Below, one piece after another: positions 2,623 through 60,580 of a stretch of 64,000 bases of DNA (the stretch's first letter is position 1; every line of letters begins with the position of its first letter). The translations under genes and the position numbers were made by a program. The DNA lies in assembly GCF_036417845.1 (NCBI RefSeq), contig NC_089978.1, positions 20,838,000 to 20,901,999 of the forward strand. The letters are read 5' to 3'. The DNA comes from Apteryx mantelli. Lineage: Eukaryota. A model generated the notes under the pieces. That model did no database searches and was not told the DNA's origin. It was given only the letters and a program-made list of their open reading frames with translations.

Positions 2623-3525
2623 TCTTCAGATACCAATATTAGAACGAATATCCTTTATTTAGTTGGATACCACTTACATTACTGGAAAAGTGAATATATC
2701 TTCCTAACATGTAAAACAGGGGGGAAAAAACAGCAACAACTTCTAGCAAAGGGGACAAGGAGGTTAGTGAGCTCTTGATCCCTAATAGCAAGATTTATTA
2801 AAGTGTCTCTTAACATTTGCAGCTAACATTATATCTGGCACCTGGGGAGAGCTACAAGCAGACATAGAGCCAGTTACAGTGGCTTAACTAGCAAGATTGC
2901 TTCAAGAGGCAGGGCGGAGGGAGGAGGGAAATCAATCATAGGGTCATAAATCCATGCTTTTGGTCCCAAAGTCTTGCATACTTCATCATATTCAACACTA
3001 AAATCTCTCATCACCTAAACAGAGCCTGGTATATGGGTGTGTATACCTATTTTGAGAACTAATAGAAGATGTTCCTTGCTATGTTGCAAGAATATACAAC
3101 TTTACTGTGTTCCTCTGTGATTTTCCAATGTACTGAAGTATTTGGACTGAAGTACTACCATTGTAACAACCAGCACTAGCACTCTGTTTCCTAAGCTTTG
3201 AGTGAAGTAATAATGGATTACTCTAAAACAAAGTGCATCTTTTCAGTTAAAAAAAATTGACAGCAAATACTCTGCCACTGAATGCACTTTCATTTCTGAA
3301 CTGGAACCTGTGCCAGCTGGAAACAACAGACATTAATTAGATCTTCAATAACTGCACATTATGAGAAGGAGGACAACAACCTTTATTCGTGTGTAGAGAC
3401 TTGCTCTTTAAGCATGGTCTGTTCTATACACTGCACAGGTTTTGCTTACTTTCAGGTATGACAAATCATGTGCAGGAACAAAATAAATCTTTGTTGGTGC
3501 ATGTCAAGAATTTTATAACTTTTAC

Positions 3526-3927
3526 CTGTTCAAGCTTTTGTAAGAGTGGATCATTGTAGTCTGATTTATTCTGACCATCCACTTCACCATGGACAAACTC
3601 TGTTTTAGAGGCTTCTAAATTATATGCTGCTGCTGGAAAAGATGTTTCAGTGGTGTGTTGCTGAAGTCTACAAGAGCTGCTGGATTCCAGTATTTGTTCT
3701 TCACACAAGGAGTCCTCACTTATAGAGCAGCTGCTTGAAAGATAGAGCACTTCAACAGGGAAAGCTGTGATGTTTTCATGTCCAGATAACGGACTTTCTT
3801 TGTTGATTTTCAACCCAGGAAAATTAGGATCTAGTAAGACTCCAGCACGGGAAGTGTCAGACATCCAATGTGCAATGAAGTTCGGTTCACTACTTAGATC
3901 TTCAACAGTTGGCATCTTATATTCCAA
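3526..3927 (-). CDS. CENPJ: CENPJ first coding exon (ATG at 3925-3927 on minus strand; 5'UTR continues to about 3953-3964)
   Basis: The translation 'MPTVEDLSSEPNFIAHWMSDTSRAGVLLDPNFPGL...DPLLQKLEQ' matches the CPAP N-terminus '[28 protein letters not shown]...DPLFKKLEQ'. The minus-strand donor 'gaacag|gtaaaa' at 3526 joins in phase 0 to the next exon. Confidence 0.7.
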
Positions 3928-4186: not shown

Positions 4187-5840
4187 AGACCACTAGTAAC
4201 AAACACTTTCTATACAGGAAGTCAACAAAATCTAACTTTTAAACTTTAATATTAACTGCATTCAAATAAATAACATCTCAAACGTTATAAAGCTATACAC
4301 AATATTCTATTCAATAGCACAGGGACAGGTTCAGAGCTTTTAAAAAGCATTCACAGCAAAAGGAGAGAGAAATGTTTTGAGGAGCTGAAAAAGATACACT
4401 AATATGAAGGTCCCGTGAGGGAAGTAATTTTTAAAGTTTGTCTACATACAATCATTTTACTGTGTATATTTCAGTGAGCACTTATCATTTTCATGCTTTC
4501 CTTGGTTTCTCATGGGAACTCTACACTGTGCTGCCTGTTAACCTCTTCCTCCTCCTCCCATCATCTTTTTTTTTTTCTTCCCCCAAACACAGAAAGAGTT
4601 TGAAGACTATGAAAGTGTCAGTGATGATCAAATTCCTACAAGCTTCATGAAGCAGTAATGAATTCAGGTAGCTAAGAAGCCCGGAGCGATGCCCCACTAA
4701 GGCCAGAGCCAGAACTGCTGCTGCTCACGTGGCAACAGCAGTCTGGCCACTCAGCGCTGCTACGTCAAACAAGTCCAAGAGCAGATAACTCTCTGCCTGT
4801 GTGTATGATGTGTCATAAGGAACACAGACAGAAAAAGTGGTCAGGGAACAAAGGACATTCAACCATAGGAAACCAGTCGTCAACAGTCCTGCTACTCAGG
4901 AAACAACATTTTAAAGTTTCCCCATTCCCAAGAGATCAGTCCATGCCAGCTCTTGTTTAATTCTCCACATACACAGAAGCTGTAAAAGGGCTTAAGCCTT
5001 TAACCAAAGTTTCACAGAGGCAACAACATGAGAAGCAGCAGACCGGCCTATAACTAGGGGAGACAGCAAGATTCCCTTAAATGAACGGTTTTCAACTTCA
5101 TCCTGTTTTCAGACACCACTGAAACTTCCCCAGCAAGGTGCAGATTCCTGCATAAGCAAATTTAAACCTGCTGGGTTTACACTTTTTTTCGTGTCACCTT
5201 TTGGAGACCCCTTCAAGGCAGCCTGTCAGTCCACAAGCAGATGCCTGAGCTAGACAACACAGTGAAAACTAGTCTTAGATCACTGCCCACCAGGTTTTGA
5301 GACCCCCCAAAAATACCCTCCTAAAATTTATATGAACTGTCTAATAAAAGTGCGATCTATTTAAAGCTTCTCCTGAAGTTTAAAGGCAGCGGCTCCTCTG
5401 TGCAGACCTTCTGAGGGAGGGGAGGTGGGGAAGGGAAGAAAGGACCCCCCAAAAGCCGGAAGAGCCCTCCTCGGTGGCGAGGAGGCGAGCGCAGCCTTTC
5501 TCCTTGCTCCGGAGCGGAGCCGGGGCGCCAAGGCCAGCCGGCATCTCCCTCCCCCGGGGACACCCCAGCGCCGCCCCAGCCTCCAGCACCGCGACGTCCT
5601 CACAGAAGGCAGCCCGAAGGGCCGAGGGCGGCCGCCCCGGCGGGGTCCCCCGCGCCCGCCGCTCCCCCGCCCCAGGGCAGCTCCGACCCGCGGCCCCTCG
5701 CGGGCGCCGAGGCAGCAGCCCCGATCCTCGCACCCCCGCTCGCCGCCGCCGCGCCGGCCGCCCGCCCTCCCCGTCTCTTACAAACCTGCCGCCATCGCAC
5801 AGCCTCCCAGCGCCACAGGCTGAACAACGCCCCGCGCGAG

Positions 5841-5865
5841 GCATGCTGGGAGTTGTAGTCCCAGG
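5841..5865 (-). promoter_or_regulatory. ZNF143/SBS-type 'ACTACAACTCCCAGCATGC' motif, minus orientation
   Basis: The reverse complement of 5841-5865 reads 'cctgggACTACAACTCCCAGCATGC'. This matches the extended ZNF143 (Staf) motif ACTACAAyTCCCAGCAaTGC. Confidence 0.6.
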
Positions 5866-5910
5866 CCGCTACCCTGCCCGCCCAGCTGCGAGGAGGCCCT
5901 GCGGCGCTCG

Positions 5911-21550: not shown

Positions 21551-23689
21551 GTAACTTTTCCAGATTGCTAGTAATTCCTGATCTGCACTGTGCTGTATCA
21601 GTTTTAAATGTGCTCACTAGATAAGTTGACTGGGTATTTTGTGCAGCCAGTCACAGACAGTATTAGTTTAAAAAATTAATTTATTGAGATCTCTTGCGTA
21701 GAGTAACGCTCTTGGTGGGGAATTGAACCTGTTGAACAGGAAGACCAGTCAAGGTATGGATGCTGACAGGCGTCTCCTTTGCAATTTCTGTGATGGCATC
21801 TTCAGCTGGATCAACTGAGATTCACAAAACTTTTTCTGGTGAATTCTTATAATCCAGCTGGCCTTAGTAACCACTCCAGCATACACATAATCAGTTTCTA
21901 TTGATCATCTTAAATTAATACAGAACATATCTTAACTCTTTTATTAGTGCACAGAAGACTGTTCTGTGTGATCTCTACTACATATGCAGGAACAGTTTCA
22001 AGAAGCTGTTTAAAATTATCTACCTATGTACAGTTTGGTCAGTTCCTACATCTACAGCACAAAATGGGGGGGAGAGGGTGTGTAGTCTGCCAGACTGCCT
22101 GGATTCTCTGTGCAAGAAGCTAATCAGCACATCTAAACATACAGATAGTGTTTTGTCAGTTGGTGTAAGGCCAGCTGTCCTGCCTAGGAAAATCTCCCAC
22201 CACCACTCCCCCTTAGGTCTCCTGTGTTAATGAGTTCATTTTTAAGCTGGCTAGGAGTTCAGGCAGACAGGAGTTCAGTTGCCCTGTTGCAAATCAGTCC
22301 TCCGTCTCATCTTCGCAGAGTGGCTGGGAAATTCTCAGGCTGCCCAGGGAGCAGGTGCTGACGGGTGCAGAGCGTGCGCGCAGGCAGAGCCCTGACACCC
22401 AGCAGCTGTCGGGGAGCAGCAGGGGCAGGCGAGCCAGGAGGGAAGGTGAGGAAGGCCAGGACAGTTACCTCACCAGCAAGGGCACAGGCCCGCAGTACCA
22501 AACAAGAAGAGCAGAGCAGGTGACGGTGACTGCCAGTGGCAGTAACCAGGGGCAGACAGCAGTCCAGATCACCTCATCATTATGGCCTTGTCTGGCAGGC
22601 CCAAGGTCAAGCCAGGAAGTCAAGTCCACAGGATCAGTCAGAACTGGGGAAGTACCAGGCCAGGTGCAGACATATCTGCAACATAGCTCAGCCAGAGACC
22701 AAGGACAAGAGCTGGAGCTTAAAGGCAGCTCCTGAGTAAAGGTAGGTCATGCCCCTGCTGGGGCTTCTCACAGCTTTTTCAAGGCCTTACAGCTGTACTG
22801 TCAAAGCTGGCCCCGAGCCCAGGCAACTAGACCCTCGGGTGAAGTGAGATGCACTCAGGGCCCTGTCAGCTATATCACACTTGTAACTGTAGAACAAACT
22901 TGAATTTCTTCCTTGTATCACAATTATAATGTAAATTGCATAGATTGTGCTAGAGATCCCTCTTTGTTTTTGCAAAGGATACCCAAAGGTCAGTCTTTGA
23001 GTTACAAAATACAAAGGGGGAAAGGTAAAGAGAGGGAGGCTTCCTACTGGGGTAAAAAAGTAAATGTTAATAGTGTCTTTAATCTGGAAGTATTCCTGAT
23101 ATCAGAAATTATTATGTCTCGTACACCTTTCCCATGACTTAGTGAAATGTAGTATTAAAATTTTATTAACTGTCCTCTTTTTTCCTGGTCTGTGAAAATT
23201 ACATGAATGCGTTGTTCTATTGCCCTAACTAGATAGTGGCACCAGTGACAATATATGACGGATTCTAATAAGTAAGGGTTGCCTTGCAAGCGAAATGAAA
23301 ACAATAGCCGACCATGAATTCTGGTTTGTGGAGCTTTTATGAGCAGGCTCCATCAGGAACTTGATTTGGAGTTGTACAAAAGCAGTCTAACTATTTCTCG
23401 TATTCCTTTTTCTTCTGATTTGTTTTTATGGGATGCAATAGCCGTTTTGGTCTTGTTCCTTACTATATCTGACAAGTGAAAATGTTCTTTTGCATATTCC
23501 ACTTCAGTGATATTACAGTGTAACTTTATATAATTCAGTCTCAGTTTTGTGTTCAGCCTGAGTGTTTCCTTAATTAAAAATGTACCAAGTATTCGTTTGC
23601 AACAGAATTCACTGAAAAAAGTTAATGTTTATTATTCATTCATATGTGTTAATCATGCAACAATTGTAATTTCTGTCATTATTTTCTAG

Positions 23690-31806: not shown

Positions 31807-31893
31807 GTTAAAGAAAAGAAACAAGCACATAGGGAATATAGCAAAGCTATCAGTCAGGGTGATGGAGCTTATCTAATGGACCAGGATGCACCG
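31807..31893 (+). CDS. PARP4: PARP4 coding exon 16 (VIT)
   Basis: The translation 'VKEKKQAHREYSKAISQGDGAYLMDQDAP' matches human 'IKEKEEAQQEYLEAVTQGHGAYLMSQDAP'. The donor is 'ccg|gtatgt'. Confidence 0.85.
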
Positions 31894-32449
31894 GTATGTT
31901 GAATATGGTGGTTTGTTTACCTATATGAAAATTTTGTAATGGTCAGATTAGAGACAGATTATCTGGACATGAGTGAATATTCCCTTGGAATCTTTACAGA
32001 ATCATGTCTTTATTGGGAAGTTCCTTTTTATTGGAACTTATTTAGACAGTACATGTGATCACTTTTAAAAACTAGTATTTTTTCTTTCAGTATGTCCTAC
32101 AGCTTATATAAGATACTTCTCTTTCTGGAGCTTTTCTTTGTAGAGAAATCCAAACTTTTTTTGTAAAAGAATAATTTTTTTTTTTTAGTTAATATTGGTC
32201 AGTTTGGCCCAGAAATCTTAAAGAACTATTAAAGGTTTGTCATTTCAAATAGTACTTTCTGTGCTAGCATTTGGTCTCAGCATATGTAAACAACAATTAA
32301 ATTTGGGGGAGGGGGGAGTGCAGGCTTTAACAATGTCATTAAAGCTAGCCACTTTGTTATAGGTAAACGTGACAAATCGTAACGACCACTCTAACTGGGT
32401 TGCATAAATTCCAATTTAATAAAATAACTGAGCAAGTCACAAGTAAGCA

Positions 32450-32830
32450 AAACAGCGCTGGGCGGCCAGGGAGCCTCCGCTCCACCAACGGCGCGCAAAA
32501 TTCCCCCGCTCACAGTCTCCTTATATGCGGCTCTAGTTCCGGGTATACGTGGCACTTCCTGTAACTTCTGCGGTTGCGCCGACTGTTGCTAGGGGGTCTT
32601 CTGCAGCGGGGATGAAGGCTGCAGTCTTCCTCGGCGTTGTGAGTGATGACCTTCAGGTCGTGTGCACACATTTCACAATACAGTTGTGCAGTACCGCCAT
32701 ATTAGGTAATCTAAACTAACATTGCAGTTTCGCTAGCTCAGTGGAATCATCTCGGGTGGGGGACATGTTTTCGTTACAGGATGTTGTAGTTTAGCCCGTA
32801 CTTAGCGCCTAGTTTCATCGTACAATCACT
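32450..32830. promoter_or_regulatory. Orphan CpG-rich, promoter-like block inside PARP4 intron 16
   Basis: A roughly 380-bp island of high CpG density lies in otherwise AT-rich intron. It contains 'ccttatatg' (TATA-like, 32519-32527), GGAA/ETS-like 'cacttcctg', a TGATGA box, a tRNA-like A-box 'tagctcagtgg' (32735-32745) and a T4 run (32768-32771). No ORF of 60 aa or more overlaps it. Confidence 0.45.
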
Positions 32831-32911
32831 TCCCGAGTTGATGTAACAAATTAGCACGTATCACAACTTCCTCTCCCCTTCTCTCTCCCCCTCCCCCACT
32901 TTTTTTTTAAG

Positions 32912-33076
32912 GATATTTTTGTAATAAGTGTTGGAAACTTACCTCCCGACTCTACAGTTCTCATCAAAATCTCCTATATCACTGAACTGAGTTTTCATAA
33001 TGGTTGTATCTCCTTTCATTTGCCTGCTTCTGTGTCACCATGGCAACAGGACAAAGCATTAAATGAGAACACACAG
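32912..33076 (+). CDS. PARP4: PARP4 coding exon 17 (VIT)
   Basis: The translation 'DIFVISVGNLPPDSTVLIKISYITELS..SPWQQDKALNENTQ' matches human 'DVFTVSVGNLPPKAKVLIKITYITELS..APWQQDKALNENLQ'. Confidence 0.85.
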
Positions 33077-57919: not shown

Positions 57920-59499
57920 GTGTAATGTAATACCAACTTAATTAAAAAATACTGCAGTGTATGTTTTGACAGATATTAGAATGTGTTTAAGGAAGAACTA
58001 ATAAATATCGTTGTAACATATCAGTGTTTTCAACTGAGTAGTTTTGTAACTCCTTCAGGGTGCCTTGAAATACAAACAGCAGAACAGTTGCTTTTCTCCT
58101 GCACTGCTTTTCTTATCAGTCATAGGTCAATTTGTGAATATACAGGTCAGTTCTTTGAGAATGAATGGGGACCCTTTTTATTTTGCTGTTACTCAGTATT
58201 CTGATTTTTATCCTGTGAAAAAGCTGACTAATGTTATTTCAAACTGGATCAAACACTGAAGCCTGGTAACAAAACCAGAGTAAAGGTGATTTTTCTTAAT
58301 TTAATGTACTTTTCACAGGTGTTTAAATGAACACATTACCTCTTCTAGATCAAGCAGCTGTGCAGAATCACAGCCTGGTACCTTGTGGCCTGAGGACCTT
58401 TAGCGAGGGACTTAGTACAATTGCATGCACTGAGGCCGGATCAAGTGTGTACAGAGCATAGTCTTCTGTTGTTTGTCTTGAAAATTGCTTGAAAATACTC
58501 AGAAGTAGCAGATTCAACAGCCACCATAGGTAGCATGTTACCATGCCCTAGGAAACAAAGTGTGTTCTAGCAATAACAGAGAAACAAACTGTGCAATCTC
58601 CTTCATATGTATTTTCATGAGAAGCTAAGCAAGTATCTGCCACTGGTGGAACAGATTAACTTCATCCTGTGTTAAGTGCAGGCAGTTGCTAAGAAGATAT
58701 CCTGAGATCCTTCTGTTCTAAGATGCTATGAATCCTTGTTTTCACATCTGTAAGATTTTCACTCTTTTTAGTAAATAATACAAACGAAAGAGTTGTGCTG
58801 CACTTTACCTGAAAAGAAATAGGATATTGGTGTCATAAGATCTAGAAAGACTCCTGAATTTATACAACTACAGACTAGCTTCTAAGTCTGCTGTTAAGTA
58901 TTTGGTCAATTGATGATGGAGTCATCTTAGAAAGAAATCGTTGGCAAAATTATGAATAAAAGATTAATTTTTTTCCTTCATTGCAGTTAATTACTTAAAT
59001 AGTAACACCTTGCATTTTCACTGTTGTAATGATGCATCCTGTATAGGCACTTTTACAGTGTATATGTTCATGCTAAAGCCTGACTCTCCTTTAAGTGATG
59101 TGCATTCCCTAAGAAACTGTTTCTGGGATACATGAACGCTTTGGCACTAGGAAAGGCAGTTAAACAAGCAACTAGGATGGGGTTTCTTTGCTTTTTCTCA
59201 CAAAAAAAGGTTATCTTTTTTTCTTCATGTGCATTACATAAAATAATTGCCTATAGGTAAGCACACCTGTTTTTAAGATGCAAAACACCATGGCATTTAA
59301 AGGGGGTTTTTTTTGTTTTCCCAGAGAGAAACCCCATTCCCCAGTGGGATCATCTAGCTCTTCCTGAGGTATTAATGTATGTCTTTTTTTTTTGCATTTC
59401 CCCAGTCAAGTGCCTTTTCTCTTTTTATTTGGGCAAGGCAATCTCATCTGGGCACTTCATCTCTTGGCAGAAAGGTCAGCAGTATGAATATGAAAATCT

Positions 59500-60580
59500 C
59501 CTTCCGGCACCCCTAGTCGGGGTAACTGCCCCCCTCGCTCGGGGAAGGGCCGCCGCCGCCCGAGAAAAGCGAAACCCCACGCGGCTGCCAGGGCGGGATG
59601 TCTGTCCCCAGAGCAGGGGCGCCGCAGCGAGCGCGGAGCCGCGCCGCCCGTCACCGCTCCCTCCCAGCCGGCAAGGCCGCACCAGGCGCTCCCGGGGCCG
59701 CCCGCGCAGCCGCCCGCGCCCCGGCGGCTGCAGACGCGGTCGCCCCAGGCGGGCGGAGCGACGGAGCGCGGGCCTGGCGGCGGCGGGAGCGGCCGCGCCG
59801 CGCCCGCCTCCTCTCAGGGCGCCGCCGCGGTCCCCTGCGGCCTCCCGCCGCGAGCGCCGCTCATTGGCTGCGGGCGACTGCCACGCTGAGGGCACGGAGG
59901 CTGCTAGGCTTGGGCCCCGCCTCCGTGCGTCACGGGCTGGCGGGGCGCCGATTGGCCGCGGCGGCCGCCCTGCCGCCTCCTCGCCCGGCGGTGGATGTCG
60001 CAGCCTCTTTTGCCCGTTGTCGTTTGAAACTCGGCCCAAGATGGCGGCGGCGGACGGGAGCGGCGCTGAGGCGGCGGCGGTCAGGCTGGAGGGGGCGGCG
60101 GAAGAGGAGGAGACGGCAGCTGCGGCCGAGGATGAGGAGGACGAGGAGGAAGACGGTGGCGGCGGTGGGTCTGGCAAGGCGGCGGGCGCGGCGGCTGCCG
60201 GTGGGGAGGCCGGCGGCGGCGGGGAGAGCGACGAGGAGGAGGACGTGTTCGAGGTGGAGAAAATCCTGGACGTGAAGACCGAGGGGGTGAGTGCGCGCCG
60301 CCGCCGCCTGTCAGCGGCCGCCCTGCGGCGGGGCCCGCGCGGGCGGCGGCGCCGGGTGCCTCGGCGGGCTGGCGCGCAGCCCGGCCGCCCTCCGCCCCGG
60401 CGGGGCCAGCGGCTCCCTAGCGGCCGGACTCCCCCTGCCCCGGGAAAGCGCACGGGAGCGCGGCGAGCAGGGGCGGCCGCCAGCGCTTGCAGCAGGGCGG
60501 GCCTGGGTGGGCTTGGTCGCGTGGCGCTCTCCCTCAGTCTTTCTGCGCGCAGGCTTTGCAGGCTGCGCAGGTAAGAGACC
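59500..60580. promoter_or_regulatory. MPHOSPH8: CpG island and promoter of MPHOSPH8, extending through its first exon
   Basis: The GC/CpG content is extreme. Two inverted CCAAT (ATTGG, NF-Y) boxes lie at about 59862 and about 59950, a 'cgtcac' CRE-like half site lies at about 59927, and the Kozak ATG follows at 60041. Confidence 0.7.
60041..60286 (+). CDS. MPHOSPH8: MPHOSPH8 (MPP8) coding exon 1: acidic N-terminus and the start of the chromodomain
   Basis: The context 'cccaagATGG' precedes an 82-codon ORF, 'MAAADGSG...ESDEEEDVFEVEKILDVKTEG', ending at the donor 'ggg|gtgagt'. The segment 'EDVFEVEKILDMKTEG' is the start of the MPP8 chromodomain in human. Confidence 0.8.

Follow-up and report, generated by a model that had tools for sequence, protein, structure and literature searches.

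A 540-bp block of CpG-rich DNA in an intron of a PARP4-like gene is almost certainly a lineage-specific insertion, since the site is intact and empty in the other birds that we sampled. The window in which it lies is the whole 64,000-nucleotide stretch of DNA analyzed here. By its sequence features the insert is most likely an ordinary, young transposable element of LTR-like type, and we consider it probable, with moderate confidence, that it derives from the 3' end of an endogenous retrovirus (ERV) lying antisense to PARP4. The main value of this result is a corrected annotation: what had the appearance of an orphan promoter or small-RNA gene would be a young transposable-element insertion.

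The CpG-rich block and its host intron

The window is vertebrate and bird-like in character, with a plus-strand gene that is preceded by a CpG island at 5.4-6.5 kb. This gene is PARP4-like; the exons near the block match proteins labelled poly[ADP-ribose] polymerase as well as the Pfam families VIT and VIT_2. The first-pass annotation had already named PARP4 as the host, and the two exons that bound the intron agree with this, both encoding VIT-domain sequence. The upstream exon (31807-31893, plus strand; VKEKKQAHREYSKAISQGDGAYLMDQDAP; VKEKKQ...DQDAP) ends at a GTATGT donor, and the downstream exon (32912-33076, plus strand; DIFVISVGNLPP...NENTQ) begins at an acceptor 9-16 nt from the insertion. 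Both exons are intact and in frame. The intron between them (31894-32911, plus strand) is 1018 bp long and of phase 0.

All of the CpGs in this intron (29/29) sit in a single block of 540 bp at 32356-32895, which has a GC content of 49% and is read here on the minus strand. The outermost CpGs are at 32368 and 32857, and there is none in the remaining 462 bp of the intron, as expected from the earlier remark that CpG is rare elsewhere in this AT-rich sequence. That remark went with the description of a CpG-rich segment of roughly 380 bp; the enrichment holds, and the extent has to be revised, the discrete unit being the full 32356-32895. At the CpG density of the background introns, about 3.0 CpGs would be expected in 540 bp (P~3e-19), and 5.7 would be expected once the base composition of the block is corrected for (P~3e-12). 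The observed/expected ratio (o/e) of CpG is 0.88 for the whole block and 0.96 for the LTR core, i.e., the block without its purine-rich end, compared to 0.17 for 46 kb of surrounding introns. In 300-bp segments of 32301-32900 the ratio ranges from 0.74 to 0.86, against 0.30 for the window as a whole, and only the two promoter islands of the window are richer in CpG than the block. According to the criteria of Gardiner-Garden and Frommer (>=200 bp, GC >= 50%, CpG o/e >= 0.6), the segment 32401-32700 is a CpG island, with a GC fraction of 0.53 and an o/e of 0.86; under stricter criteria (500 bp, 55% GC) the block is not one. TpG shows no excess in the insert (o/e 0.93-0.95), and CpA has an o/e of 1.18-1.30.

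Absence of the block from other birds

We used the 60-aa ORF that spans the upstream VIT exon as a query to find orthologous exon ORFs in Logan bird assemblies, and the corresponding contigs were fetched. Those with an empty site (L001, L005-L008, L015/L016, L003/L010, L009, and L011) represent at least five bird lineages as judged by intron distances, each about 0.13-0.28 substitutions/site from the window. For every sampled bird contig, the alignment with the window breaks off at about 32348-32363 and is taken up again only at about 32899-32903, so that the block is skipped; the limits of the CpG-bearing DNA coincide with the boundaries of the indel. The orthologous introns are 439-507 bp long, with a GC content of 28-30% and 0-3 CpGs, and their empty sites read ...cattaaag(a/c)tagt(c/t)-T-rich-ag/GATATT, where the slash marks the splice junction. 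A non-avian outgroup contig (L013), with an exon identity of 58-80%, has an intron of only 104 bp at this position. Contigs L001 and L005-L008 are chicken-like. The ORF variant P0222 occurs on 259 contigs, gut metagenomes among them; these are presumably chicken host DNA, and they are only about 70-72% identical to the window in introns (BLAST identities). The window species is itself not chicken, and ten of its ORFs, looked up exactly in a collection of 15 billion proteins, gave no match.

Because the sampled birds lack the block and the outgroup intron is 104 bp long, we take the absent state to be ancestral and the block to have been inserted in the lineage of the window. Whether the segment is conserved at this intronic position in chicken and other birds had been posed as a question by the first-pass annotation, and sequence comparison answers it in the negative for all birds sampled. 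Judged from these alignments, the insertion postdates the split of the window lineage from every other sampled bird lineage. A lineage-specific block, with a site that is intact and empty in other birds, is what an LTR insertion should present, and the clean presence/absence state is a possible phylogenetic or population marker for the lineage of the window species.

The difference in CpG content between the insert and its surroundings may be a matter of age. The surrounding intron is old and presumably methylated in the germline, and it has lost all of its CpGs. The insert would have kept its CpGs either because it arrived recently from a source not depleted in CpG or because it was held unmethylated in the germline. 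We favor youth over protection, since none of the other sampled lineages has the element, and the age of the insertion is accordingly put as young on comparative grounds.

Junctions of the insertion

The sequence CCACTTT stands exactly at both insertion junctions. Its left copy is at 32349-32355, and its right copy, at 32896-32902, runs into the T-run of the splice acceptor; the alignments of L011 and L015 overlap both copies. From its position this direct repeat is the signature of a target-site duplication, which would be 6 bp long (CCACTT) if the element ends in ...ACA. Retroviral integrase generates CA ends and duplications of 4-6 bp (PMC4176367). CCACTT(T) flanks the block directly, and a 6-bp duplication lies within the integrase range, as in alpharetroviruses. 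It had also been foreseen that the segment might turn out to belong to a known CpG-rich repeat present at many genomic sites. This is borne out in part, in that the block was inserted and is bracketed by a target-site duplication; as to further copies, BLASTN of the block against the 64-kb window and 65 kb of fetched loci returned none.

Another change specific to the window lies 35 nt outside the left target-site copy. Here an 18-nt G-rich patch, TGGGGGAGGGGGGAGTGC (32303-32320, plus strand), substitutes for sequence that is conserved in all other sampled birds, with no change in length. The patch gives an inverted match of 88% over 17 nt to the purine-rich end of the insertion, of which it is an inverted copy, and it may be a templated repair scar. 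The presence of this patch indicates an event more complex than simple integration.

LTR-like organization of the minus strand

On the minus strand, the block can be read as a polypurine tract (PPT) followed by an LTR. The tract, GGGGGAGGGGGAGAGAGAAGGGGAGAGGAAGT (32866-32897, minus strand), has purines at 31 of 32 positions. Within it, GGGAGGGGGA agrees at 10 of 11 nt with the PPT of avian myeloblastosis virus (AMV), AGGGAGGGGGA (PMC3407194). After the tract come GT and then TG..., the latter being the start of a candidate LTR proper, 5'-TGTGATACG...CCTATAACA-3' (32355-32865, minus strand). This candidate has TG...CA ends that form a terminal inverted repeat of 7/9 nt (binomial chance about 1.3e-3), and its terminal CA directly adjoins the 6-bp repeat.

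At the 3' end of alpharetroviruses such as AMV and Rous sarcoma virus (RSV), the PPT is immediately followed by U3. The block resembles this arrangement in having a purine tract and then an LTR, and in the 10/11-nt motif; unlike AMV and RSV, it has 20 further purines between the motif and the TG, and the likeness is that of a short motif only.

Within the candidate LTR, a U3-R-U5 layout can be traced as a reading of motifs, namely, CATATAAGG, ATTAAA, CA, and a GT-rich stretch, all on the minus strand. The putative U3 (32497-32865, minus strand), whose boundary with R is placed from the position of the TATA box, contains a perfect CArG box, CCATATTAGG (32697-32706), an ETS site, ACAGGAAGTG (32553-32562, minus strand), and the TATA box itself (32519-32527, minus strand). 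An ATTAAA hexamer (32415-32420, minus strand) is located about 95-105 nt downstream of the TATA box, and the predicted R region of about 95 nt (32401-32496, minus strand) ends at a CA about 14 nt past this hexamer. The predicted U5 (32355-32400, minus strand) is G/T-rich after the poly(A) site and ends ...TATAACA. The U3/R/U5 borders are inferred ones. An LTR of this kind would supply a compact Pol II promoter, made up of the CArG, ETS, and TATA elements, along with an R region and a signal for polyadenylation, and the promoter-like look of the block would then arise because LTR promoter signals were read, mostly from the wrong strand.

Bird genomes are unusually rich in solo LTRs, and promoter activity has been measured for a 405-bp ERVK solo LTR of passerines (PMC11009239). 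The block is like such avian ERV solo LTRs and truncated proviruses (ERVK solo-LTRs of Passeriformes; PMC11009239) in its size class (0.4-0.55 kb), in being lineage specific, in its short target-site duplication, TG...CA ends, TATA promoter, and poly(A) signal, in its intronic, antisense location, and in its retained CpGs. This is a likeness of layout rather than of sequence homology to a described family. Unlike a textbook solo LTR, the block has a 32-nt polypurine tract between the upstream repeat and the TG start.

Searches for relatives and the retroviral reading

Classification of the block rests on anatomy because the block is without coding potential and no relatives were found, and the motif-based reading of U3, R, and U5 is a post hoc one. 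That coding potential is absent had been stated before, and our searches concur: the six-frame translated block, used as a protein query, gave no match among the 8000 candidates compared, and HMMER with the longest ORF of the block (60 aa) against 1.84 billion representatives gave a single marginal match (E=9.6e-4). This match was to an 1884-aa protein with 12 matched stretches, and we dismissed it as not meaningful. Exact-pattern scans of viral_contigs and metagenome_contigs, in which one pattern allowed for CpG decay, gave zero matches, and BLASTN of the block against plasmids and phages gave no similarity. Homology to a named ERV or LTR family was found neither in the window and the fetched loci nor in the viral and metagenome contigs or the protein collections.

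Several other sources of inserted DNA were considered and rejected. A nuclear copy of mitochondrial DNA (NUMT) does not suit the base composition, which is balanced and not G-poor. A DNA transposon was rejected because terminal inverted repeats are missing, a CR1 element or SINE because the block has neither the characteristic tail nor A and B boxes, and a processed pseudogene because it has neither a poly(A) tail nor a protein homologue.

Under the retroviral reading, foreign DNA would have integrated into the PARP4 intron in the window lineage, 9-16 nt upstream of the acceptor of the VIT exon, and the inserted piece would consist of a polypurine tract and then an LTR (PPT-U3-R-U5), antisense to PARP4. 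A point against this reading is that the canonical TG start is not next to the upstream repeat: the CA end abuts its repeat copy, and the start TGTGATACG lies 32 nt inside, behind the purine tract. Placing TG...CA at the very ends (32355-32898) would leave a duplication of no more than 3 bp, a length atypical of integrase. The insert could be a provirus from which a microhomology-mediated deletion at GTGG removed the 5' LTR together with the internal region. Such a deletion would have run between the 5' copy of the target site (AAGTGG) and a ...GTGG just before the PPT, leaving a junction that shares GTGG; this version needs one extra deletion event. The insert could also be a solo LTR whose first bases are purine-rich, starting TGGGGGAGG... 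at 32898, with the atypical 3-bp duplication as a consequence, or it could be a non-canonical LTR.

Alternative explanations

An insertion that is real but not retroviral is unlikely, although it deserves appreciable weight. The inserted DNA would in that case have been copied, by way of DNA or RNA, from the CpG-island promoter and first exon of a host gene, or it would be a transposon of another class. The formal status of 32401-32700 as a CpG island would suit such a copy, as would the E2F-like, ETS, and CArG motifs in the block and a plus-strand ATG that is followed by a consensus donor; the protein, viral, and metagenome searches, with no LTR-family homology among their results, also leave room for it. 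The flanking target-site duplication, however, points to transposition rather than to repair-mediated capture, and the block has neither the terminal inverted repeats of a DNA transposon nor a poly(A) or CR1-type tail. The short ORF has no protein homologue, and a polypurine tract, TG...CA ends, TATA, and ATTAAA on one strand form an LTR-specific combination. We also consider it very unlikely that PARP4 ancestrally possessed the block as a functional orphan CpG-island promoter and that the other lineages lost it. It does satisfy length, GC, and o/e criteria for a small island in a gene body, as orphan and intragenic CpG-island promoters do, its CpG o/e is high and its boundaries are sharp, and an in-frame ATG with a donor could yield an N-terminally truncated PARP4. 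Since the block is missing in at least five other lineages of birds, and in the non-avian outgroup with its 104-bp intron, several independent exact deletions would nonetheless be called for, whereas an insertion agrees with the direct repeat and with empty sites that are intact; unlike those promoters, the block stems from an insertion that is recent, and it lacks conservation. Misassembly or contaminant DNA is scarcely credible as an explanation. The junctions are known from the window assembly alone, but they show no seam and the target site is duplicated at them, similarity to plasmids or phages is lacking, and the motif content is eukaryotic.

A plus-strand small-RNA gene, either a type-3 Pol III unit or a snoRNA, is likewise highly improbable. 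The motifs that led the first-pass annotation to suggest one are all present: the TATA-like ccttatatg at 32519-32527, a weak PSE-like string, ccaccaacggcgcgcaaaatt, at 32482-32502, TGATGA at 32644-32649, the A-box-like 11-mer tagctcagtgg at 32734-32744, and a T4 run (TTTT) at 32768-32771. In a type-3 unit a PSE would stand about 55 bp, and a TATA box about 30 bp, upstream of the start site. Individually these short motifs are not significant; the A-box pattern TRGCNNAGTGG, for instance, occurs once in the window against 0.83 expected, which is chance frequency. The block lacks a B box, as had been noted, and also a D box accompanied by a terminal stem. A scan of the whole window with Rfam at the gathering score returned no relevant family, nor did one of the intron at E<=10, on either strand, and ARAGORN found no tRNA in the block. 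The putative 225-nt plus-strand transcript has a fold z-score of -0.02, no better than shuffled sequence, and the TATA box at 32519-32527 reads better on the minus strand than on the plus strand. Absence of the block from all other birds sampled also means that it is not a conserved gene. In sum, the block shares with type-3 Pol III genes (U6, 7SK, RMRP, vault, and Y RNAs) a TATA-like element that is preceded by a GC-rich motif and followed by a T-run, and it differs from them in that its PSE-like string is weak and in lacking a covariance-model match, a structure signal, and conservation. The broader claim of a promoter-like element survives in part: the promoter motifs are real, but their most coherent architecture is on the minus strand, in what appears to be a mobile insertion rather than a conserved orphan gene.

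Possible consequences for PARP4

The insertion lies close to the downstream VIT exon, and its effect on splicing can be predicted from the sequence around the acceptor. With the element antisense, the PARP4 strand has pyrimidines in place of its purine tract, and the polypyrimidine tract of the acceptor is lengthened by them. The last 44 nt of the intron contain 41 pyrimidines (41/44), and the only AG dinucleotides in its last 80 nt are those at 32836, at 32853, and at the acceptor itself. This extended tract would help PARP4 to tolerate the insertion. The insertion has left the ancestral branch-point region (...ctttaataatgtcattaaag...) at a distance of about 550 nt, and therefore the branch point of the downstream VIT exon is presumably within the inserted DNA. 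If this is correct, the branch point and the polypyrimidine tract of a conserved exon were replaced and the gene was left unbroken.

Intronic LTRs can turn into alternative promoters, and the locus may in this respect be relevant for expression. The plus strand of the insert contains an ATG at 32612 with 9 codons (MKAAVFLGV) and a GTGAGT donor at 32639, which together make up a hypothetical alternative first exon (32612-32644, plus strand) in frame with the exon at 32912; such a match of frame has a chance expectation of 1 in 3. This ATG-donor unit is the sole basis for the idea of an alternative first exon. We regard it as very doubtful that the insert serves this lineage alone as an internal promoter, firing in both directions or against the orientation of the LTR, from which a transcript would start translation at ATG 32612 and splice from the donor at 32639 to the exon at 32912, in frame, to give a truncated PARP4. 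Such a protein would be without the BRCT and catalytic domains and would keep a portion of the VIT domain along with all that lies C-terminal of that domain.

On the sense strand of PARP4, an AATAAA (32418-32423) also comes with the insert. An acceptor, ...tcttctgcag/C at 32606/32607, could pair with the donor at 32639 to define a cryptic exon of 32 nt. From their sequence alone, the sense-strand AATAAA and GTGAGT could lead to premature polyadenylation or to use of a cryptic exon.

Other features of the window

ARAGORN reported a 91-nt tRNA-Cys with anticodon ACA at 5802-5892 (minus strand), inside the promoter CpG island, where the GC content is about 75-80%. Its length, anticodon, and context suggest that this call is a false positive. 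A block at 22000-23000 has a GC content of 50-54% and a low CpG o/e of about 0.35, and its 126-aa ORF has no Pfam match; it may represent an older repeat whose CpGs have decayed, or a GC-rich segment free of exons.

Upstream of PARP4, at 3466-3927 on the minus strand, there is a 153-aa ORF (MEYKMPTVEDLSSEPNFIAHWMSDTSRAGVLL...) without a Pfam match, which we take to resemble the N-terminal exon of CENPJ. If this ORF is CENPJ, then CENPJ and PARP4 may share the CpG island at 5.4-6.5 kb as a bidirectional promoter. At the other end of the window, a second large CpG island (59375-60574, i.e., 59.4-60.6 kb; GC about 80%) carries an ORF segment, ...EEEDVFEVEKILDVKTEG, that we take to resemble the acidic N terminus and the start of the chromodomain of MPHOSPH8. 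If so, an MPHOSPH8-like gene is the next gene downstream of PARP4.
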